Shown here piece after piece: positions 4,112 to 61,697 of a stretch of 64,000 nt of DNA. The stretch is from assembly GCA_043811535.1 (NCBI GenBank), contig JBDRNC010000018.1:108455-172454 (forward strand), written 5' to 3'. This DNA comes from Elusimicrobiota bacterium (GTDB taxonomy: Bacteria; Elusimicrobiota; Endomicrobiia; Endomicrobiales; JBDRNC01). Numbering within the stretch: position 1 is the first letter of the stretch; the number at the start of each line of letters is the position of its first letter. A program made the translations under genes and the position numbers. The notes under the pieces were generated by a model, which searched no databases, was not told where the DNA came from, and worked only from the letters and a program-made list of their open reading frames with translations.

Positions 4112-6430
4112 CTATCGCGCGAGTGATCCGGCGCGAAACATCGAAGCTATTTTCAGCGCGAGCAGCATTATCACCATCCCGGGCAGGCCCCAGGCAGGTA
4201 TTATCACCGTTCCGCCGATAAGCGCCGCAAGCCACCCGCCCATCAGGTCGGCCGCGTAAATCTTTCCCGCCTCTGCGTGTTCGCCGGTTTTTTTAATTTC
4301 CCCTTCGGCGGGAGCCAGCGCCGGGAACTGAAACCCCAGGAGCGCCCCCGACCCCGCCGACAGCAGAAATAGTAAATGCCATGGGATTTTCACAAAACTC
4401 AGCAGGCAAAACCAGATAATTATCCAAATCACGAACAATATGTCTATGATTCTAATAATCTTTTTTGGTGAATTGGTAATTGCTAATTGATAATTGTTAA
4501 TTGCGGCGTACGCCGCAATACCAGTTCCCGCCATGAAACACGCGCTCAACAGGCCTATCCAGTAATAGACCGCGCCGTTGAGCACCTGCATACCCCAGAT
4601 GCTTACCATCTGCATTCCCATCGCCGCCGCGCCGGAAGTGAATGCCGTGCCGGAGTACCCGCGACGGGTGAAAAGCAGAATCATCGTCAAAATGACGGCT
4701 ATCCATATGTATTTAGACAACGCGGAATAGAGATTGGCCCGCCCCGAAGAAAAAATACTTTGACGGTAGATAAGCGACTTGAAGAGCCCGCGCGGAGAAA
4801 AATCCCTGTTTACGGGCTGTTTCCCGAAAAATCCGCCCTCGTGTTTCTTCATTTCATTCAGAAACCATTTTTCTTTCGCCGGGTCCAGCTTATACTTTAT
4901 GTATTTGGCGGATACAAATAATTTTTCAATTTTTAAATCCTTAAATCTTTCAACCGCCGTTGCCGTTCTGGGCGCCGGCGAATTCCCGCAAATAAAAATA
5001 TTTCTTTCCCCCGGAATGACCCTGACATGTTTGAACGAGCCGTTGAGACCCGATAATACCGCGGCGTTCATCCCGCCGAGGTACCTGTCGACGTAATTCA
5101 TCGAGCCGGGCAGACTGATAACGAATATCCCGCCCGGGGCAAGGCGCCGGTTCACCGAATCAAAGAACTCTAACGTGTAGTACCTGTTTACGGAAAGCGC
5201 AGCCGGATAGGGCGCGTCTACGAAAACGGCGTCATAGCTCTTGCCGGACCCCTCAATATATTTTCTGCCGTCTTCGTAAAATACATTAACCCCTCCCCCT
5301 TTCTCCGAAAAGGGGCGCGGCCCCCACGGGGCTTTACTCCCCTCTTTCCCAAAGAGGGGAGTAGCGGAATTGCGCGAAACGAAGTCTATCAGCCACGGGT
5401 TTATCTCCACGTAATCCAGCGATTGTATTCCGTATGCCTGTATAGTCGTGATATACCTTCCCGTTCCGCCTATTAAAAGGACGCTCTCCGGTTTGGCATG
5501 AAAAAGCAGAGGCAGAAAAACGTTGTTTTCCGCGGCCTCTTTATTCGGCGCGTTGAAAGTTTCGATCGGATTGCCGTCGGAAAAGAAGAACTTCTCGCCG
5601 CCGCGCGATACCGCCGCCAGCCGGCCGTACTGCGTGTTCTGCGCCTCAACCACCTTGTATCCCGCGAATAACCTTGACAGGCTGGTAGTCTCAATTTTAT
5701 TGCTGAATAACAGCACCGGAATGAAAGCCGCGGCGAAAACCGCAAGCATTATTTTCTGTTTTTTTTCTTCAATGATGGGTATGACTGCCAAGGAAGATAT
5801 CTGGAGTATAGCGGTAGCAACAAAGACCGAATTGGCGTTCAGAAGCAGCGAAAGCGTGTAAACAACTCCGCCCGCGAAGAAGCCGAGCGTTTCCCATAGG
5901 TAAATCCTGCCCGATTTAAGGAGCCCTTCGCGTTCCTTGAGCCAGCCCATGCCTAAACTGAACTGCGCGCCTATCAACGCTCCCGCCGGGATGAATATGG
6001 ACGCCGAAACCCATAGGAGAAACAGCAAAGGCAATTCAATGCCGGCTAAGAAACCGAAAATATTCCTTATTTCCCTTATAAAAAACATCGAAAGCATCAA
6101 ATACGGGCCTGCCGCCAGAAACGTTAAGGCAAGAATCCCTCTGCATTCTTCCGTCCCGCGACAGGGGACGTCGGTATTATTATGCTTAAAGTGCTCCGCC
6201 CCGCGACAGGGGACGTCGGTATCAGAATTACGCTTAAGGTGCTCCGCCCCGCGGTTTTTCACAAATTTCGCGGTAAGAATGCTCCCGGCGGCGACGCCCA
6301 GCATCCACAGCGAAATCACGAGCCCGATGGACAGTTCGTTGCCGTGAAAAACGACCTGGATCTCCCGCAGCAGGAACGTCTGCGCGCAAACCGCGATAAA
6401 CCCGGAAAGGAAAAAGACTGAATTAAACAT
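4112..6430 (-). CDS. Membrane-anchored spermidine synthase-like polyamine aminopropyltransferase (N-terminal multi-TM domain fused to a SpeE-like domain)
   Basis: 772 aa with a hydrophobic N-terminal half. The C-terminal half has spermidine synthase motifs (VLLIGGTGRY..., DAVFVDAPYP, GGIFVISLPGS). It contains in-frame repeat insertions; see findings. Confidence 0.75.
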   Translation of the reverse strand: MFNSVFFLSGFIAVCAQTFLLREIQVVFHGNELSIGLVISLWMLGVAAGSILTAKFVKNRGAEHLKRNSDTDVPCRGAEHFKHNNTDVPCRGTEECRGILALTFLAAGPYLMLSMFFIREIRNIFGFLAGIELPLLFLLWVSASIFIPAGALIGAQFSLGMGWLKEREGLLKSGRIYLWETLGFFAGGVVYTLSLLLNANSVFVATAILQISSLAVIPIIEEKKQKIMLAVFAAAFIPVLLFSNKIETTSLSRLFAGYKVVEAQNTQYGRLAAVSRGGEKFFFSDGNPIETFNAPNKEAAENNVFLPLLFHAKPESVLLIGGTGRYITTIQAYGIQSLDYVEINPWLIDFVSRNSATPLFGKEGSKAPWGPRPFSEKGGGVNVFYEDGRKYIEGSGKSYDAVFVDAPYPAALSVNRYYTLEFFDSVNRRLAPGGIFVISLPGSMNYVDRYLGGMNAAVLSGLNGSFKHVRVIPGERNIFICGNSPAPRTATAVERFKDLKIEKLFVSAKYIKYKLDPAKEKWFLNEMKKHEGGFFGKQPVNRDFSPRGLFKSLIYRQSIFSSGRANLYSALSKYIWIAVILTMILLFTRRGYSGTAFTSGAAAMGMQMVSIWGMQVLNGAVYYWIGLLSACFMAGTGIAAYAAINNYQLAITNSPKKIIRIIDILFVIWIIIWFCLLSFVKIPWHLLFLLSAGSGALLGFQFPALAPAEGEIKKTGEHAEAGKIYAADLMGGWLAALIGGTVIIPAWGLPGMVIMLLALKIASMFRAGSLAR

Positions 6431-13004: not shown

Positions 13005-13090
13005 AGTTTTTTGGCGTTTAGCGTACGGCGTATCACCTTAAGAGGTCGTCTTCTGTTTCCCGCTTCCTGCTCCCTGCTTCCTTCTTCCGT

Positions 13091-14827
13091 CTACTTTGCT
13101 CTGTCCGGATAGGGCAGCGAAGCCTTTCCATGCATCAGTTCAGCCTGTGAATTTACCTCCGTCATGGCGGAAGCGAGCGCCTTATATATGTTGTCGTGTA
13201 TGTCATATATACCGTAATTCGAGTTTTCCCCGTCGAACGACCTTCCCTGCGGCGATTCATCGGCGTACATAAACCAGTGATAGCCCACCGCGTAAGGGAA
13301 ATCCATCAGCTGCGCGACGTATTTGCGAAAACCGTCCGCCCTGTCTTCCTGGCTCTGAACTGTCACATCGGCCCCGTGCGTGTTCCTGTCGCCGCTGGCG
13401 TTTTCCATCGCCCTGTACGAGAACTCGGTCACCATAACCGGCTTCTTTCCCAGAAAATACATGTTATCAAATACTTCTTTCCTGAGGATTTTGTCTTTCG
13501 CGTAATAGTTGAGCGATATTACGTCGCAGTATTTCCCGCAGGCCTCAATGACTCTTTTCGGAGCGTTGTTTGCGAAACGCGAACCGAGTATCAGGTGGTC
13601 CGTGTCATATTTGCGTATCGCTGAAGTCATCACGGCGAAATATCTTTCCGCCACCCTTCCCGCGAACTCTTCCCTGTCTTCGTCAGTACGCCCTCCGCGT
13701 TTCGTGAGCGGGCCGTACAGGCCGAACTCTTCAAAACTCTCAAAATTTGTTCCCCAGACGCCGTTAAACTCGCCGATATCGCGGTATCTTTCCTTAAAGA
13801 AAGCGGCCAATACCTTGCTGCCTGGAGTGACGGAGGGCAGGTTTGAATAAACGTCAAGCAGGGTTGTCACGTGGCCGGTGTACCAGCCGACATCGCCGTA
13901 CCACGGCAGTTCGTTATCCAGAAAATATCCGATTAGGTATTTGGCTCCGCTCATGCGCCTGCAGTACTTTTTGATTACCTGTTCCGCGTTCAATTCAAAA
14001 TCCGGCGCAAACACATCCGCGAGCCTGTGCGAACTGGAAACATTTACGTAGATGAACAGGGTAAACGGAAGGTCGTACGCGAATGAATGGTCGTTTGACC
14101 AGCAGCCCAGGGTATTGAAGTTAAGCTTCTTGAGCCGTTTCACGGCCGAGGCGCCCCACTTCCTCAAATTCTTGAATTTTCCGGCAACGGAGTAGCGCTC
14201 GGATCCTTCTTTTGCGGTGCCGTCTTCCGGTACCACGGCGTCCACGCCTTTTGAAAGGAAAAGCCCTCCGTCCGGATGGACAAGCCAGTAAATGTCCCCC
14301 TCTTTTCTGATCTTGAAGAAGCTGTTGCCGGTCTTGTAGGTAGGCTGCACGCTGACATCCTTATACGGTTTGTCCATGAATTCCGTCTCCCAAATGGAGT
14401 TACCCCATTGCGTGGCCCTTTCAATGCAATTTATCATGACGTATTTGACCTTGTAGGCCTTTTTAAAATTTATTTTCCTGTAATTGCCTTCCAATTCCCC
14501 GGTGACCTCCGCGGCTGTCTGCCATTTCTCGTTATCCGTTGAAACCAGTATCTGATAGCTGTACGCGGCGGCGGTTTCCCAGTGAATGCCCACGGCCCTT
14601 ATGCCGGTGATCCCGGCGAACTCATATTTTATCCATTGGTTGTCCGCGAAATCAGAACCCCACCTCGTTTTCATGTCGCCGTCGCAGGCCATCATGGGCT
14701 GGTAATCGCTCTCCCCGGAAGAAGCCGTGACTGACGATATTTTATTATTGAGCTGGGCCGATACAGGAATATTTAACGCGGCAAGAAGGGACAATGCAGC
14801 CAGAATGGTATTTATGGATAATCTCAT
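13091..14827 (-). CDS. Secreted protein with N-terminal F5/8 type C (discoidin/CBM32-like) domain and glycoside-hydrolase-like TIM-barrel region
   Basis: Signal peptide MRLSINTILAALSLLAALNIPVSA. Discoidin-like segment SDYQPMMACDGDMKTRWGSDFADNQWIKYEF. The remainder is a large catalytic-looking domain. The family was not resolved. Confidence 0.5.
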   Translation of the reverse strand: MRLSINTILAALSLLAALNIPVSAQLNNKISSVTASSGESDYQPMMACDGDMKTRWGSDFADNQWIKYEFAGITGIRAVGIHWETAAAYSYQILVSTDNEKWQTAAEVTGELEGNYRKINFKKAYKVKYVMINCIERATQWGNSIWETEFMDKPYKDVSVQPTYKTGNSFFKIRKEGDIYWLVHPDGGLFLSKGVDAVVPEDGTAKEGSERYSVAGKFKNLRKWGASAVKRLKKLNFNTLGCWSNDHSFAYDLPFTLFIYVNVSSSHRLADVFAPDFELNAEQVIKKYCRRMSGAKYLIGYFLDNELPWYGDVGWYTGHVTTLLDVYSNLPSVTPGSKVLAAFFKERYRDIGEFNGVWGTNFESFEEFGLYGPLTKRGGRTDEDREEFAGRVAERYFAVMTSAIRKYDTDHLILGSRFANNAPKRVIEACGKYCDVISLNYYAKDKILRKEVFDNMYFLGKKPVMVTEFSYRAMENASGDRNTHGADVTVQSQEDRADGFRKYVAQLMDFPYAVGYHWFMYADESPQGRSFDGENSNYGIYDIHDNIYKALASAMTEVNSQAELMHGKASLPYPDRAK

Positions 14828-14926
14828 ATGGTTATTATATCAAAAAAGAAATACCGCGGGCGCGTAGCCGCTTTACGGGGGTAGGTCGTTCTCCGTCTTC
14901 CAACTTCCATCTTCCGTCTGCTGTAA

Positions 14927-18904: not shown

Positions 18905-18958
18905 AAAAAAGGGGACGGTTCTATTTATTCTGAAAGAAAAATAGAACCGTCCCCTTTT
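18905..18958. terminator. Third copy of the GGGGACGG...CCGTCCCC terminator module between the MATE gene and the radical SAM gene
   Basis: Same repeat, flanked by promoters facing both ways. Confidence 0.6.
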
Positions 18959-18967
18959 CCTCACACC

Positions 18968-18996
18968 TTTACAAGGCGGTGAATTAACGCTATAAT
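18968..18996 (+). promoter_or_regulatory. Consensus sigma70 promoter TTTACA-N17-TATAAT for the AmmeMemoRadiSam operon
   Basis: Seen directly about 45 nt upstream of ATG 19041. Confidence 0.6.
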
Positions 18997-19040: not shown

Positions 19041-20123
19041 ATGAAAATAACCATGATTAGAAACATTCTGCTTGCCATTCTCTTTTCTCTCGTTCTCTGC
19101 TCTCCCGTTTCCGCGGCGCAGGACGCGAGGTACTGGGAGAAGCTTGATTCGGGCGATATCCAGTGCCTCCTGTGCCCGCGCGAGTGCGTCATACCCGAAG
19201 GCGAGACCGGTTACTGCACGACGCGCAAGAATGAAGACGGCGTCCTGAAATCCCTTGTTTACGCTCAGTTGGTTTCAATGAACGTTGACCCCATAGAAAA
19301 GAAACCGCTTTTCCATTTCCTTCCCGGCACCGATATCCTGTCCGTAGCGACCGCGGGATGCAACCTCAGGTGCAGTTTCTGCCAGAACTGGAACATCTCA
19401 CAGGTAAAACCGGATGAAGTTGAGTCAGTCAACGTTTCCCCCATGGAACTTGTAAAGATCGCGAAGAGGAGGAAATGCCCGTCCATCGCCTATACCTACA
19501 ACGAACCCACGGTTTTCGCCGAATATGTCTTTGACTCAGCGGCGCTCGCAAGGAAACAGGGCGTCAAGACGGCGATGGTCACGTGCGGCTATACGAACCC
19601 CAAACCGCTGAAGGAGCTTTGTTCGGTCATTGACGCCGCAAGCGTTGACCTGAAAGGTTTTTCGGACACGGTTTACCGCAAAGTCGCGGGAGCGAAGCTC
19701 CAGCCGTTCCTTGATTCATTGAAAATCTACAAAGAAAACGGCGTCTGGCTGGAAGTCGGCTATCTTGTGATACCCACGCTCAACGACAGCAACGAGGAAT
19801 TGAAGGCGTTCGCTGACTGGATTTATAAAAACCTCGGGCCCGACGTTCCGATGCACTTCCTGAGGTTTTTTCCCCAGCACAAAATGACCAATCTTCCGCC
19901 GACACCGCTGGAAACGATGGAGAAGGCGTATAACATAGCCAGGAAGGCCGGCATGAGGTACGTCTATCTCGGCAACGTGGCGGGCCACAATTCGGAAAAT
20001 ACATACTGCCACAAGTGCGGCAAGATGATAATTGAGCGCAAAGGATATATCATACAGCAGATAAACATGAAAGACGGCAAGTGCGGCTTCTGCGGCCAAA
20101 AGATACCGGGGATATGGAAGTAG
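19041..20123 (+). CDS. AmmeMemoRadiSam system radical SAM enzyme, with an N-terminal signal-peptide-like extension
   Basis: CNLRCSFCQNW (CxxxCxxC), an upstream Cys motif QCLLCPRECV...YCTTR and a C-terminal Cys pair. The family-typical YWEKL start is preceded by MKITMIRNILLAILFSLVLCSPVSAAQDA. Confidence 0.8.
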   Translation: MKITMIRNILLAILFSLVLCSPVSAAQDARYWEKLDSGDIQCLLCPRECVIPEGETGYCTTRKNEDGVLKSLVYAQLVSMNVDPIEKKPLFHFLPGTDILSVATAGCNLRCSFCQNWNISQVKPDEVESVNVSPMELVKIAKRRKCPSIAYTYNEPTVFAEYVFDSAALARKQGVKTAMVTCGYTNPKPLKELCSVIDAASVDLKGFSDTVYRKVAGAKLQPFLDSLKIYKENGVWLEVGYLVIPTLNDSNEELKAFADWIYKNLGPDVPMHFLRFFPQHKMTNLPPTPLETMEKAYNIARKAGMRYVYLGNVAGHNSENTYCHKCGKMIIERKGYIIQQINMKDGKCGFCGQKIPGIWK

Positions 20124-20176
20124 ATTGAAGACGGAAGACAGAAGAATGAAGCAAACCCAAAAACATGGAACAATAA

Positions 20177-21727
20177 ATGAAAATACATTCTTTATTTAAT
20201 AAGTACTTCCATCTTCCTTCTTCCATCTTCCGTCTCGTCCTGGCTTCCATCTTCCTTCTTCCATCTTCCGTCTTGCCTGCCGTCAGGCAGGCAGCAGTGG
20301 CGGGGCAGTTCTATCCCGATAATCCCAATGAGCTTTCGGCCATGGTTCAGAATTATCTTGACCAGGTGCCCGCGATAGCGCTTGACGGCGAGCCGGTCGC
20401 GGTCATGGTTCCGCACGCGGGATATATTTTCTCGGCAAAAACCGCGGCATACGCTTTCAAACTGATAGAGCAGACCGGCGCGGAAAACGTGATACTCATC
20501 GGCAACAGCCACCGTTTTTATCTAAGCAAAGGCGCTGTTGTTTCCGAAGGCAAATTCAAGACGCCGCTCGGAGAAGTGGAAATAAACAGCGAACTCGCCA
20601 GGAAAATCCTGGCAAACACTGCGCTGCTGGAAGAAAACGCGCAGGCGCACGCGCCGGAACACTCGCTTGAAGTTGAACTCCCGTTTTTGCAGAAAACACT
20701 TAAGAAATTCAGGATAGTGCCCATACTTTTAAGCGAAATGCCGGTTTCAAGGTGCGAAGCGATAGGAAAGGCAATTGGAAAGGCGGTCGCGGAACTCGGG
20801 ATTAGCAAAAAAACCATCATAGTGGCCTCAAGCGACATGTCCCACTATCCCCGTTACAAAGACGCGAAAATCTCGGATAACAGGATACTGGAATCCGTTA
20901 AGAAATTTGACCCCGCGGTATTGGCGGCGACTGACGCGGCGATAAAAAGAGATAATATTTCCGAACTTCAATGCACGCTCTGCGGGCTTGAATCAGTCTG
21001 CGCGGCGATGTACGCGGCCAGGTATCTCGGCGCGACTTCGGTAAAAGTGCTTAACTACACGAACTCCGGCGACGCTTCCGGCGATACGTCAAGAGTGGTC
21101 GGATACGGCTCCGTAGTGTTCTATAGACCCGGAAAGATTATAAAAACAGCCGTAAAAGAGGTAAAGGCCATGGATGAATTCAAGGTAAGCGAGAAAGGGC
21201 AGAAAGCCCTGCTGAAGATCGCCAGGGAATCCATTGAAAGCTATCTGAAAACCAAAAAACTTCCGTCTTTTGACGTTACCGACAAGGAGCTTCTCGCGCC
21301 GGGCGCGGTTTTCGTAACACTTACCGAAAAAGGCGGCTTGCGCGGATGCATAGGCACTACCGTAGCCCAATCGCCGCTTTACCAGGCAGTGAGCCAGCTG
21401 GCTGTCGCGGCCGCTGTGGAGGACACGCGCTTTCCGGAAGTAACGGCCGGCGAGCTGAAAGATATACACATCGAAATATCGGTGCTTTCACCGCTGACTA
21501 GAATTAAGAACGCTGATGAAATACTCCCCAACAAGCACGGCGTTGTAGTCAGAAAAGGTTTCAGAAGCGGGCTGTTCCTACCCCAGGTCTGGGAACATTT
21601 CAACAAAAAAGAAGATTTCATGGACGAGCTCTGCTGGCAAAAGGCGGGCCTTGACCGCAATGCCTGGAAAACCAGTGAAGTAGAGTTATATATATTCACG
21701 GTATTCGCGTTTGAAGAAAGCAAATGA
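20177..21727 (+). CDS. Fusion of AmmeMemoRadiSam system protein B (Memo-like) and protein A (AMMECR1 domain), with an N-terminal hydrophobic extension
   Basis: Memo motif AVAGQFYPDNPNEL...MVPHAGYIFS in the N-terminal half. AMMECR1 motif LRGCIGTTVAQSPLY in the C-terminal half. About 37 aa of hydrophobic leader precede it. Confidence 0.75.
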   Translation: MKIHSLFNKYFHLPSSIFRLVLASIFLLPSSVLPAVRQAAVAGQFYPDNPNELSAMVQNYLDQVPAIALDGEPVAVMVPHAGYIFSAKTAAYAFKLIEQTGAENVILIGNSHRFYLSKGAVVSEGKFKTPLGEVEINSELARKILANTALLEENAQAHAPEHSLEVELPFLQKTLKKFRIVPILLSEMPVSRCEAIGKAIGKAVAELGISKKTIIVASSDMSHYPRYKDAKISDNRILESVKKFDPAVLAATDAAIKRDNISELQCTLCGLESVCAAMYAARYLGATSVKVLNYTNSGDASGDTSRVVGYGSVVFYRPGKIIKTAVKEVKAMDEFKVSEKGQKALLKIARESIESYLKTKKLPSFDVTDKELLAPGAVFVTLTEKGGLRGCIGTTVAQSPLYQAVSQLAVAAAVEDTRFPEVTAGELKDIHIEISVLSPLTRIKNADEILPNKHGVVVRKGFRSGLFLPQVWEHFNKKEDFMDELCWQKAGLDRNAWKTSEVELYIFTVFAFEESK

Positions 21728-21828
21728 CCGTAGGTCCCATCTCGGTCATCCCCGAAGGTCTTAATCGGGGATCCACTTAATAGTAACGTGGATTCCCGCT
21801 TTCGCGGGAATGACAGATTCATTCACAT

Positions 21829-22431
21829 ATGATAAATGGTTTCTTATTAGGTTTATCCAACAATCTCTTCTGTTTCCTGAACTGCGCCGTGGTATTCATC
21901 CCCTACGCGCTGGCATCCAAAAACAAATCTTACATCTCGATAACCCTCTTCATGGCGGGGCGGCTGATAGCCTACGTATTTTTCGGTTTTGCCGCCGGTT
22001 ACACGAGCTTATACTTTGACGGGCGCATTGACCCGCTCTATTACCATTTTTTCACTCTCCTGATGTCGCTTTGGCTCATCGCGTTCGCGCTGGGAAAATT
22101 GAATCTCAAGCTTTCCGCGTGCGCGTGGATGGGCAGCAGATTTTCGGGAAAGACCTTCCCGCTTTTTCTGGGAATCCTGATGGGTCTGAACATCTGCCCG
22201 CCGTTCATGCTGGGGCTGAGCGAAACACTGCAGATGAGCAGCGTGCTGAAGCCGGTCGTTTTCTTTCTGGGGTTTTATCTGGGCTCCAGCCTGTGGCTTC
22301 TTGTTTTTCTTTTCACAGGGAAGCTCGCGCAGCTCAAATTCATCAGTTTGTCTGCCAAGATAATCTCACTTCTCGTAGGACTCTACTACTTCGGAATATC
22401 CGTTTCAAAATTGGCATACTTTATCTTATAA
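21829..22431 (+). CDS. Hypothetical polytopic membrane protein with Cys-containing TM motifs (FCFLNC, NICPPF), possibly partnered with the AmmeMemoRadiSam genes
   Basis: 200 aa with about 6 TM helices. It sits about 100 bp downstream on the same strand. No confident family assignment. Confidence 0.45.
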   Translation: MINGFLLGLSNNLFCFLNCAVVFIPYALASKNKSYISITLFMAGRLIAYVFFGFAAGYTSLYFDGRIDPLYYHFFTLLMSLWLIAFALGKLNLKLSACAWMGSRFSGKTFPLFLGILMGLNICPPFMLGLSETLQMSSVLKPVVFFLGFYLGSSLWLLVFLFTGKLAQLKFISLSAKIISLLVGLYYFGISVSKLAYFIL

Positions 22432-22435
22432 CAAC

Positions 22436-22551
22436 GATTACACCGATTTTTAACAAAGATTACACGGATAATTAATCTGTGGAATCAGTTGTAAATCTGT
22501 GTAATCGTCTTAATTAATCTGCGTAATCGCTGTTTGTTATCTGTGTAATCG
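22436..22551. repeat. GATTACAC 13-mer array: 2 forward plus 5 reverse-orientation copies downstream of glnK
   Basis: gattacaccgatt, gattacacggata, then aatctgtggaatc, aatctgtgtaatc, aatctgcgtaatc, tatctgtgtaatc at 20-23 bp spacing. Confidence 0.75.
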
Positions 22552-24638: not shown

Positions 24639-24720
24639 GTAATCTGTGTAATCTCGTTAATAATCCGTGTAATCGTTGTCTGGAATCTGTGTAATCTTTG
24701 TTTTAAGCCGCGTAATCGTC
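24639..24720. repeat. GATTACAC 13-mer array within the amtB 5' leader (4 copies)
   Basis: aatctgtgtaatc, aatccgtgtaatc, aatctgtgtaatc, gccgcgtaatc. Confidence 0.7.
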
Positions 24721-39331: not shown

Positions 39332-39472
39332 GATTACTCCTTACTGTAAAGCAGGGTCCAGTAGCCAAGGTCCAGGGTCCAGGAAAACACTAAAAAATAA
39401 TTACAAATAATAGTGCGGTACGCAGCCAGTTTTGTCTTCCGTCTTCCGTCTTCCGTCTTCCGTCTGCGGTCT

Positions 39473-40279
39473 TCAGTTCCCTGTTTTAGGGGTAATCAAG
39501 ATTGAAGTGTCCTTGCCCATCATGTACTGGGGAAGATGCCCGTCCCATTTGGCTATCCATTGGAGGGCGATACCCTTGTCTGAAACCGTCTCCTTGAGCA
39601 TCTGCTGTTTTCTGGCTTCCCCTTCAGCGTCAAGAATAACGCGTTTCTTGTTTTCCTCCGCCTGCATCCTCTGGTACTGGGCCGTCTTGATCTTCTGCTC
39701 TTCTATCTGTTTCTGTTCGACAACCTTATTGAATTCATCGGCAAAGTCAATGTCAACCAGATTTACGTTTTCCAGTATTATATTATACGTCAACAAACGC
39801 TTTGCCAGAAGGCTCTCTATTATGGCTTTAACGCTCTCTCTTTCAACGATAATCCGCTCGACCTGATACTGGGAAACAGCGGCCTTTACCGCCTCATTTA
39901 CCGCCGGCTCGATCACTTTCTGCATGTAATCTCTTCCCACTTTCACGTATATCTGGTCAACCATCGTGTAGTCCAGGTGGTAATTCAGGACTGTTTCCAT
40001 TTTTACAAGCTGAAGGTCCTTTGAGGCGCCTTCGGCAAGTATGTCAAGGCGCTGCGTCTTGACATCGAACTTGTTTACCGTGTGAACGATAGGTATCCTG
40101 AAATGAGTTCCCTGCGAGTACGACGCGGTCTCTCCGCTGATGTTATTGAAAGTCACGCCCACCTGGCCCGGTCCCACCACGAATATCGGGTTGATGATAA
40201 GCGCCGTAAAAAGGACCACAAGTCCCGCGGCAATAAGAGTAACAGTCTTGAACGGATTTTTTCCTAAATCTTCCAGCAT
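39473..40279 (-). CDS. SPFH/band-7 (prohibitin/HflKC-like) membrane protein
   Basis: N-terminal TM helix followed by an SPFH domain and a coiled-coil tail. Confidence 0.75.
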   Translation of the reverse strand: MLEDLGKNPFKTVTLIAAGLVVLFTALIINPIFVVGPGQVGVTFNNISGETASYSQGTHFRIPIVHTVNKFDVKTQRLDILAEGASKDLQLVKMETVLNYHLDYTMVDQIYVKVGRDYMQKVIEPAVNEAVKAAVSQYQVERIIVERESVKAIIESLLAKRLLTYNIILENVNLVDIDFADEFNKVVEQKQIEEQKIKTAQYQRMQAEENKKRVILDAEGEARKQQMLKETVSDKGIALQWIAKWDGHLPQYMMGKDTSILITPKTGN

Positions 40280-40325: not shown

Positions 40326-40423
40326 TCTCTGATTACACTGATTATACAAAGATTACACAGATTAAATATCCGTGTAATCGTTTCTAAGAATCTATGCAAT
40401 AAGTGTACCCAATCTGTGTAATC
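40326..40423. repeat. GATTACAC 13-mer array upstream of the SPFH gene (includes GATTACACAGAT-N6-ATCCGTGTAATC palindrome)
   Basis: Seen directly. Confidence 0.7.
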
Positions 40424-40583
40424 AAGGCCGTTGAGGACTTTTCCAACGGCCTCAATTTAGCTTCCGCATTCACCAATATATTTAAATGCAGATATGCGGC
40501 CATGCAACCAGCGGCCGGTAGCCGTTCAAACACTAAATACTAAAAACTAAATCCCGCTTTCGCGGGAATGACAAAGCCCCTGC

Positions 40584-47334: not shown

Positions 47335-47425
47335 TGTGTGTGCCATGTTTCCTCCCTCCGCTGGCATTACCCAGATCAGGTTTTTGCGGTAATCCCGTTA
47401 CTACGGGAACTCTCAGGCCGTTATA
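47335..47425 (-). ncRNA. TPP (THI-box) riboswitch controlling thiM-thiE
   Basis: The minus-strand sequence GGCCUGAGAGUUCCCGUAGUAACGGGAUUACCGCAAAAACCUGAUCUGGGUAAUGCCAGCGGAGGGA matches the TPP aptamer core (CUGAGA ... ACCUGAUCUGGGUAAUGCCAGCG ... GGGA). Confidence 0.8.
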
Positions 47426-47524
47426 CGACCTCCCTTGATGTCAATTAAACCGAAGTGCCTAGTATAGGTACGACCTCCCTTGATGTCAATTAAACCGAAG
47501 TGCCTAGTATAGGTACGACCTCCC
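47425..47524 (-). promoter_or_regulatory. Tandem 45-bp direct repeat (2.2 copies) whose junctions form a consensus sigma70 promoter TTGACA-N17-TATACT upstream of the TPP riboswitch
   Basis: Unit ACGACCTCCCTTGATGTCAATTAAACCGAAGTGCCTAGTATAGGT is repeated exactly. On the minus strand each junction reads TTGACAtcaagggaggtcgtaccTATACT. Confidence 0.65.
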
Positions 47525-58148: not shown

Positions 58149-58245
58149 GATTACACAGATTATTAACAACGATTACACTGATTTATAACAAAGATTACGA
58201 GGATTTCAAACAGAGATTACACTGATATAAATATCTGTGTAATCA
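58149..58245. repeat. Array of phased 13-mers GATTACACWGATT (4 direct copies at 22-bp spacing plus an inverted copy forming a 14-2-14 palindrome) upstream of mnmA
   Basis: Seen directly. The same 13-mer family occurs at nine or more other intergenic loci. Confidence 0.8.
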
Positions 58246-61645: not shown

Positions 61646-61697
61646 GATTACACTGATTTCAAACAGAGATTACACTGATTATAATCTGTGTAATCGT
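61646..61697. repeat. GATTACAC 13-mer array upstream of the cysK leader, with a 28-bp near-perfect palindrome GATTACACTGATTATAATCTGTGTAATC
   Basis: Seen directly. Confidence 0.75.

Follow-up and report, generated by a model that had tools for sequence, protein, structure and literature searches.

Why should a radical SAM (S-adenosylmethionine) enzyme begin with what reads as a secretion signal, and what does the membrane protein encoded behind it contribute? Radical SAM enzymes depend on machinery for iron-sulfur (Fe-S) assembly, on SAM and on a low-potential reductant, and to our knowledge they are treated as strictly cytoplasmic. The question is raised by an AmmeMemoRadiSam locus at positions 19041-22431 of a 64,000-nucleotide stretch of Elusimicrobiota bacterium DNA (NCBI GenBank assembly GCA_043811535.1, contig JBDRNC010000018.1, positions 108,455 to 172,454 of the forward strand); the whole stretch is called the window below. 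The operon contains the following features.

19041..20123, + strand: radical SAM enzyme gene (360 aa; TIGR04337 and Radical_SAM Pfam match)
19041..19115, + strand: predicted Sec-type signal peptide coding region, encoding MKITMIRNILLAILFSLVLCSPVSA, then AQDARYWEKL
20177..21727, + strand: Memo (B)-AMMECR1 (A) fusion gene (516 aa; TIGR04336, TIGR04335, Pfam Memo and AMMECR1)
21829..22431, + strand: DsbD_2-family membrane protein gene (200 aa; Pfam DsbD_2, six predicted helices)

The three open reading frames are co-directional, with a gap of 53 nt between the radical SAM and fusion genes and of 101 nt between the fusion and DsbD_2 genes. Their three products are 100% identical to NCBI records from an Elusimicrobiota metagenome-assembled genome. 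The radical SAM enzyme scored 402.2 bits against TIGR04337 (cut-off 220; the match begins at residue 29), residues 37-315 of the fusion scored 269.7 bits against TIGR04336 (Memo/B; cut-off 26), residues 344-511 scored 177.4 bits against TIGR04335 (AMMECR1/A; cut-off 99), and the 200-aa protein scored 50.6 bits against Pfam DsbD_2 (PF13386; cut-off 24.9). All components are encoded together as neighbours on one strand, with A and B fused, and with the three TIGR models above their curated cut-offs the locus is by profile match an AmmeMemoRadiSam system, an annotated family that is already known. A first-pass annotation, made from the letters alone, had recognised this system and its Memo and AMMECR1 domains in one 516-aa polypeptide, both of which the domain models and their coordinates bear out. 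Its description of the locus as an unusual form does not stand: relatives as a rule have both the B-A fusion and N-terminal signals. The fusion was ruled out as noteworthy in itself, since both domains were present in 120/120 best matches to it and AMMECR1-dioxygenase-like fusions were reported in 2007 (PMC2034487). The canonical AmmeMemoRadiSam system is alike in its three domains above cut-offs, its neighbouring genes and its CX3CX2C with extra N- and C-terminal cysteine motifs, whereas the canonical models begin only with the mature core; the window's system, like that of a large multi-phylum clade, has export signals on both proteins, the A-B fusion and an attached DsbD_2.

The invariant cysteines of the radical SAM enzyme in the alignment are C42, C45, C49, C59, C107, C111, C114, C323, C326, C348 and C351, of which C107, C111 and C114 form the CX3CX2C motif, and the nearest solved structure was 3c8f (E = 3e-9). 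The nearest characterised family is that of pyruvate formate-lyase activating enzyme and the glycyl-radical activases, which differ in being cytoplasmic and in lacking the extra cysteine motifs of the window enzyme. Identity as such an activase was not supported: TIGR02493 gave 71.6 bits against a cut-off of 231.75, and no glycyl-radical enzyme is encoded nearby.

Ahead of its conserved core the radical SAM gene has just two in-frame start codons, ATG 19041 and ATG 19053, and both lie 5' of the hydrophobic stretch, so that the extension must be translated; the non-AUG start near the core that the first-pass annotation had considered is not available in this gene. The N-terminus is laid out as MKITMIR, NILLAILFSLVLC and SPVSA, followed by A. 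By heuristic criteria this is the n/h/c architecture of a signal peptide, with a positive n-region, a hydrophobic h-region (hydrophobicity 3.2, which places it in the Sec class) and small residues at -3/-1, and the V-S-A signal-peptidase-type site sits directly before the family core. Close homologs have A/G-type cleavage sites that end immediately ahead of the core. The twin-arginine motif S/T-R-R-x-F-L-K is absent from the N-terminus of the window's enzyme. The extension of about 35 aa claimed earlier for both enzymes is 25-28 aa in the radical SAM enzyme; for the fusion, with its hydrophobic extension of about 36 aa at the N-terminus (counted from ATG 20177), the estimate holds; the signal-like character of both N-termini was supported.

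The signals of relatives were classified heuristically, with a regular expression for twin-arginine translocation (Tat) signals and then by eye (among the loci, which carry L numbers, L006 was judged Sec-like and L045 and L062 RK-type Tat-like). The radical SAM alignment, used to scan one genome per GTDB species, yielded 80 loci from many phyla, comprising 41 with RR Tat signals, 12 with KR/RK variants (53/80 Tat-type in total), 17 with Sec-type signals or helix-plus-linker anchors (the Sec/transmembrane, or Sec/TM, class) and about 10 with no signal. An N-terminal signal was likewise found in 102 of the 118 full-length close homologs of the radical SAM enzyme (71 Sec-like and 31 twin-arginine). 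The mean h-region hydrophobicity was 3.14 in the Sec/TM class and 1.84 in the Tat class (p = 4e-10); Sec h-regions are known to be more hydrophobic than Tat ones, and the signal classes thus separate as expected. Judged from these comparisons, the N-terminal signal is kept across relatives while its sequence varies. Of the 111 scorable homologs of the fusion, 53 had Sec-like and 23 lipobox-like N-termini and 28 start at the core, and B-A fusions that neighbour the radical SAM gene almost always have Sec or lipobox signals. Since Tat exports proteins folded and cofactor-loaded, and most homologs have Tat signals, the mature enzyme most likely works outside the cytoplasm, that is, it is most likely exported rather than anchored facing the cytoplasm. 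The opposite preference of the first-pass annotation, for a membrane anchor over secretion, is at odds with the 53 Tat-type homologs and with the window N-terminus ending in V-S-A at the core. Separately, a Tat-type subclade (L029, L044, L049, L050 and L058) has about 25 extra residues inserted behind the ARYW motif of the radical SAM enzyme, and this insert contains CxxCH (for example RCVECH, NCGTCH, TCEDCH, SCKSCH and RCLSCH). CxxCH is the attachment motif of c-type haem, and if haem is attached there the enzyme would have its own port of entry for electrons in the periplasm.

The distribution of the membrane protein follows that of the signals. With DsbD_2 called by Pfam (including L014 and L027), the gene flanks the system in 13/17 Sec/TM loci and in 0/53 Tat loci (Fisher p = 5e-11), and two of the four Sec/TM loci without it have less than 1.1 kb of downstream flank. 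Among the sampled loci the association is strict, DsbD_2 being confined to the non-Tat class, and the 13 Sec/TM loci answer the doubt, raised at the outset, whether the membrane-protein gene is co-conserved with the system in relatives. Its position is variable: it may precede or follow the radical SAM gene or follow the B-A gene, and may flank either enzyme alone. Within Elusimicrobiota it directly follows the radical SAM gene in L001 and the B-A gene in L002, L003 and L085, and in L004 it follows a B-A gene that has no radical SAM gene alongside. The adjacency spans metagenome-assembled genomes (MAGs) labelled Elusimicrobiota, Omnitrophota, Chlamydiae, Auribacterota and UBP3, with rearranged order and otherwise unrelated flanks, and in a crude neighbour-joining tree of the radical SAM cores the DsbD_2-positive loci fall into at least five groups amid Tat clades. 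The reverse test was a metagenome scan with the DsbD_2 alignment, which gave 80 loci: system genes were present at every locus with a DsbD_2 at least 43% identical and a usable flank (L087 and L091, at least 43% identical with cut flanks, have none), and 16 of the 47 loci of at least 3 kb carry them. From this distribution of genes, DsbD_2 is functionally linked to the system, and only in the non-Tat class.

The first-pass description of a six-helix protein with FCFLNC and NICPPF motifs about 100 bp downstream was confirmed. By heuristic topology C15-x3-C19 lies in helix 1 and N-I-C123-P-P-F in helix 4; C15, C19 and C123 (N-x-C-P-P-F) are invariant in 37 aligned DsbD_2 sequences, and C98, in a positively charged loop before helix 4, is nearly so. 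The 200-aa protein had no NCBIfam match and matched no Pfam family besides DsbD_2 at E <= 0.01, and a PDB sequence search gave no match even at E <= 10. The CcdA/DsbD carriers (e.g. the CcdA-ResA arm) are alike in six helices, in helix 1 and helix 4 cysteines beside prolines and in DsbD_2 membership, as well as, on the reading proposed below, in being tied to a Sec-exported cysteine-rich apoprotein that acquires its cofactor outside the cytoplasm. They are unlike the window protein in that the latter has C-x3-C in helix 1 instead of a single cysteine and an extra loop cysteine, and in that the DsbD_2 partners of its relatives are FeS/FMN modules, with no thioredoxin-like acceptor nearby.

We therefore propose, with chances that we put at about even, that the operon encodes an envelope-exported variant of AmmeMemoRadiSam in which DsbD_2 would pass reducing power across the membrane to a Sec-exported enzyme. 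The radical SAM enzyme would have a cleavable Sec-type signal peptide and the fusion its own atypical signal, and both would be expected to act in the periplasm or at the cytoplasmic membrane's outer surface, where DsbD_2 would deliver reducing equivalents to them. Most probably it would serve to hold in the reduced state the 11 conserved cysteines of an enzyme that Sec exports and that is at first unfolded, by analogy with CcdA, which keeps the cysteines of apocytochrome c reduced. The reduced cysteines could then bind and retain Fe-S clusters, and SAM cleavage might draw electrons from DsbD_2 as well. In relatives with Tat signals the enzyme would be exported folded with its clusters, and this without DsbD_2. 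We infer both export itself and the redox role of DsbD_2 from sequence.

Several observations weigh against this proposal. We know of no pathway that inserts Fe-S clusters outside the cytoplasm, so that the mechanism of a Sec-exported radical SAM enzyme is difficult to account for; the enzyme would also require SAM and a low-potential reductant there, and we know of no route of SAM supply. The usual acceptor of CcdA/DsbD is a thioredoxin-like protein, and no thioredoxin-like periplasmic partner was found among the recurrent neighbour families of 84 + 80 loci. The window's DsbD_2 protein gives no match to the canonical DsbD_TM (PF02683), and in a Foldseek search with its AlphaFold model (pLDDT 76.5) CcdA 5vkv ranked second with a non-significant score (E = 0.9, TM 0.43). 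The N-terminus of the fusion is atypical as a signal, with a 19-aa n-region, a 9-aa h-region and a coding region of repeat DNA. The loci are not phylogenetically independent and the neighbour-joining tree is crude; all signal calls are heuristic, and all steps are sequence-derived.

It is unlikely, although the electron-transfer genes around DsbD_2 in other genomes speak for it, that DsbD_2 serves not maturation but catalysis, as the electron conduit for SAM cleavage at each turnover, alone or with NapH-like or FMN partners. DsbD_2 is fused to FMN_bind and NapH/NosR-type Fer4_5 modules in L013 (5075-6742), L033 (1744-3435) and L040 (5006-6751) and to Fer4_5 in L117 (103-1347), and L074 (7185-11129) encodes a 1314-aa protein with Spermine_synth, MFS-like, FMN_bind and Fer4_5 parts; each of these fusions adjoins the system or a DsbD_2 locus. 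A NapH-like polyferredoxin is encoded directly downstream of DsbD_2 in 15/31 system-free loci, and the NapH-like gene is followed by one for a small secreted protein (150 aa, no Pfam or NCBIfam match) in 11 of the 80 metagenome DsbD_2 loci. NapH/NosR-type modules give electrons to periplasmic enzymes, and NapH-like and DsbD modules are acknowledged means, established or proposed, of carrying electrons across the membrane to extracytoplasmic enzymes (PMC8238504). These gene associations also count in favour of the redox role that we propose. The flavinylated modules of that study resemble the fusions of the relatives, in which DsbD_2 is joined to FMN_bind and to the Fer4_5 CX3CP membrane domain, and are unlike the window, in which no NapH-like or FMN_bind protein is encoded near the operon; radical SAM, Memo and AMMECR1 are unmentioned there (Meheust et al. 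2021, PMC8238504). The Tat class tips the balance between the two roles: catalytic electrons are needed by both classes, yet DsbD_2 accompanies only the Sec type, so that the cysteine-reducing role is favoured over pure electron supply. A few Tat-class loci have a NapH-like protein, never DsbD_2, which fits DsbD_2 serving a Sec-specific need. Thiol/disulfide couples, moreover, are much less reducing than the reduction of a radical SAM cluster normally needs.

The reading of DsbD_2 as a transporter of SAM, methionine/5'-deoxyadenosine, iron, sulfide or a product, instead of a redox protein, is quite improbable. It agrees with the label of the source record ("sulfite exporter TauE/SafE family") and with Foldseek, in which most matches of the model were secondary transporters with similarly weak scores, and the membrane-anchored DUF59/SufT-like Fe-S assembly proteins encoded directly upstream of DsbD_2 in 12/80 metagenome loci would suit traffic in cluster components. 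However, the TauE profile was unmatched (Pfam E <= 0.01, NCBIfam), invariant intramembrane cysteines flanked by prolines are a hallmark of the CcdA/DsbD-type electron carriers, and the orthologous DsbD_2 partners in L019, L027 and L042 also pass the PF02683 cut-off. Tat-type systems, furthermore, would need the same small molecules and are without the DsbD_2 gene.

A bolder reading, which we consider quite unlikely, is that the Sec-type enzyme, exported unfolded, gains its Fe-S clusters outside the cytoplasm, and that DsbD_2 belongs to an unrecognised extracytoplasmic apparatus of Fe-S maturation and reduction. In other genomes such an apparatus would include the NapH-like polyferredoxins, the FMN-binding domains and the membrane-anchored DUF59 proteins, the last of which have an N-terminal membrane helix (L102, L113, L134, L142, L144-L147, L154, L162 and others). 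If true, it would support periplasmic radical SAM chemistry.

The predicted export of the fusion depends on its start codon, around which the following repeats were found.

20127..20151, + strand: heptad repeat of purines (GAAGACGGAAGACAGAAGAATGAAG) within the 53-nt spacer, forming the 5' arm of a predicted RNA hairpin
20206..20235 and 20244..20273, + strand: two exact 30-nt CTTCC-rich copies in the 5' coding region of the fusion, 3' hairpin arms

The repeat DNA that had been noted in the coding region of the fusion's extension is thus present as two exact copies. They are read in different frames, and the odd signal-like peptide can be traced to pyrimidine-rich DNA, which gives Leu, Phe, Ser and Pro whatever the frame. 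The predicted hairpin (20127-20273; -63.9 kcal/mol, z = -5.8) encloses the ribosome-binding site and AUG of the fusion. An analogous hairpin, with other arm sequences (GTAGACC vs GGTCTAC; z = -4.2), occurs in the closest relative, L085 (69% identical); the same arrangement with different arms suggests a conserved translational control element. The fusion could be signal-less in this genome, starting at TTG 20273 (codon 33) or GTG 20297 (codon 41) with the CTTCC repeats as a structured 5' leader, a reading to which we assign little probability. Both codons are in frame, so the first-pass suspicion of downstream non-AUG starts, empty for the radical SAM gene, has some substance here; a TTG start would yield MPAVRQAAVAGQFYP, like the 28 signal-less homologs that begin MVREPAVAGQFYP, and the 5' region has nucleotide-level repeats, two reading frames and a strong hairpin. 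Neither codon, however, has a purine-rich ribosome-binding context, while ATG 20177 and the radical SAM start have the context GGAnnAAnAAATGAAAATA in common as a direct repeat, and the L085 protein begins with the same ATGAAAATA and has a classical signal, MKINIKTVVFFFLCTVYGILSTEAA; on these grounds ATG 20177 is favoured. A GTG start would also cost the fusion conserved core residues.

That uncleaved N-terminal anchors keep the two enzymes at the cytoplasmic side of the membrane, within reach of Fe-S assembly and SAM, would remove the problem of cofactor supply, and the helix followed by a 30-40 aa linker in L013, L033, L034, L040 and L063 is anchor-like, with positive charges after the helix in L034. 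This is nevertheless very unlikely, given that the Tat signals of most homologs direct the mature domain outward, the window segment has its signal-peptidase-type site directly at the core, Lys/Arg before the helix predict an N-in/C-out orientation in nearly all Sec/TM examples, and many partner B-A fusions have lipoprotein boxes. That DsbD_2 is a mere syntenic neighbour with no functional tie is hardly credible, for although in L002 the downstream glnA/P-II/amtB genes are likewise syntenic with the window, so that close relatives alone would not prove linkage, the adjacency recurs across several phyla with rearranged order and unrelated flanks and is restricted to one signal class.

Within the exported system that we favour, a further component is suggested by gene neighbourhood.

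4112..6430, - strand: aminopropyltransferase-like membrane protein, 772 aa, with a central spermidine-synthase-like domain (556 bits with the neighbour HMM; Pfam Spermine_synth)

The hidden Markov model (HMM) was built from neighbours of the system in 36 other loci, and members of this family (700-790 aa) are encoded no more than 7 kb from the radical SAM gene in 44/84 loci of both signal classes. In the window the gene lies 12.6 kb from the operon on the opposite strand, beside a GNAT acetyltransferase gene, and its product falls below the cut-off of every NCBIfam aminopropyltransferase model. From the recurrence of the family we regard it as a probable fourth partner, and the substrate is probably an envelope molecule that would be handled with it.

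The remaining elements around the operon are the following.

18907..18958: hairpin with perfect 20-nt arms and a 12-nt loop, separating the divergent MATE gene from the operon promoter
18968..18996, + strand: sigma-70-like TTTACA-17-TATAAT (11/12, best in the region; pattern match only)
21745..21814, + strand: stable hairpin in the 101-nt spacer, no U-tract after it (-37.4 kcal/mol, z = -3.9)
22436..22550: array of ATCTGTGTAATC-type 12-mers at the operon 3' end (repeat search)

The sigma70-type promoter of the first-pass annotation is thereby recovered as a pattern match. No convincing intrinsic terminator was found between the operon genes, and Rfam gave no known RNA family in the operon region. 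The core ATTCCCGCTTTCGCGGGAAT of the 21745-21814 hairpin recurs once more in the window, at 40550-40569. The ATCTGTGTAATC element has 27 matches in the window against 0.1 expected, in about nine intergenic clusters with a spacing of about 21-22 bp and often inverted (other clusters at 24642-24696, 40331-40423, 58149-58244 and 61646-61695), and by this pattern it is a dispersed intergenic repeat family. Tandem heptads of the GGAAGAC type are found at 13070-13094, 14888-14922 and 39434-39474 (minus-strand sense) and at 20127-20151 (+), some 25-130 nt upstream of four genes and in the sense of the downstream gene. Matches number 19 against an expected 1.8, and the heptads may be a genome-specific leader element or regulator-binding site. 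A TPP riboswitch was detected at 47336-47446 (-), with 56.6 bits against a gathering score of 54.3.

The family has been predicted to act in RNA base modification (PMC2034487). Literature searches on AmmeMemoRadiSam returned incidental mentions only, those on Tat in Elusimicrobia nothing usable, and those on exported, periplasmic or secreted radical SAM enzymes, TIGR04337, and radical SAM with twin-arginine no relevant study. Burroughs et al. 2019 reportedly predict a role of the family in nucleotide base or isoprenoid modification. Neither export across a large clade nor the Tat/Sec dichotomy nor the exclusive link to DsbD_2 turned up in the searchable literature, and all three appear new here, with the proviso that Burroughs et al. 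2019 may already describe some of these associations.

Export signals in a large multi-phylum clade would imply that radical SAM chemistry proceeds in the cell envelope. With DsbD_2 in the Sec class only, the split between Tat and Sec would amount to a natural experiment that sets "export with cofactor" against "export without cofactor", and the maturation and powering of Fe-S enzymes outside the cytoplasm would become a directly testable question. The human relatives of Memo and AMMECR1 are disease-linked; for this family the search for a substrate would narrow to envelope molecules, with the aminopropyltransferase-like partner as a further clue.

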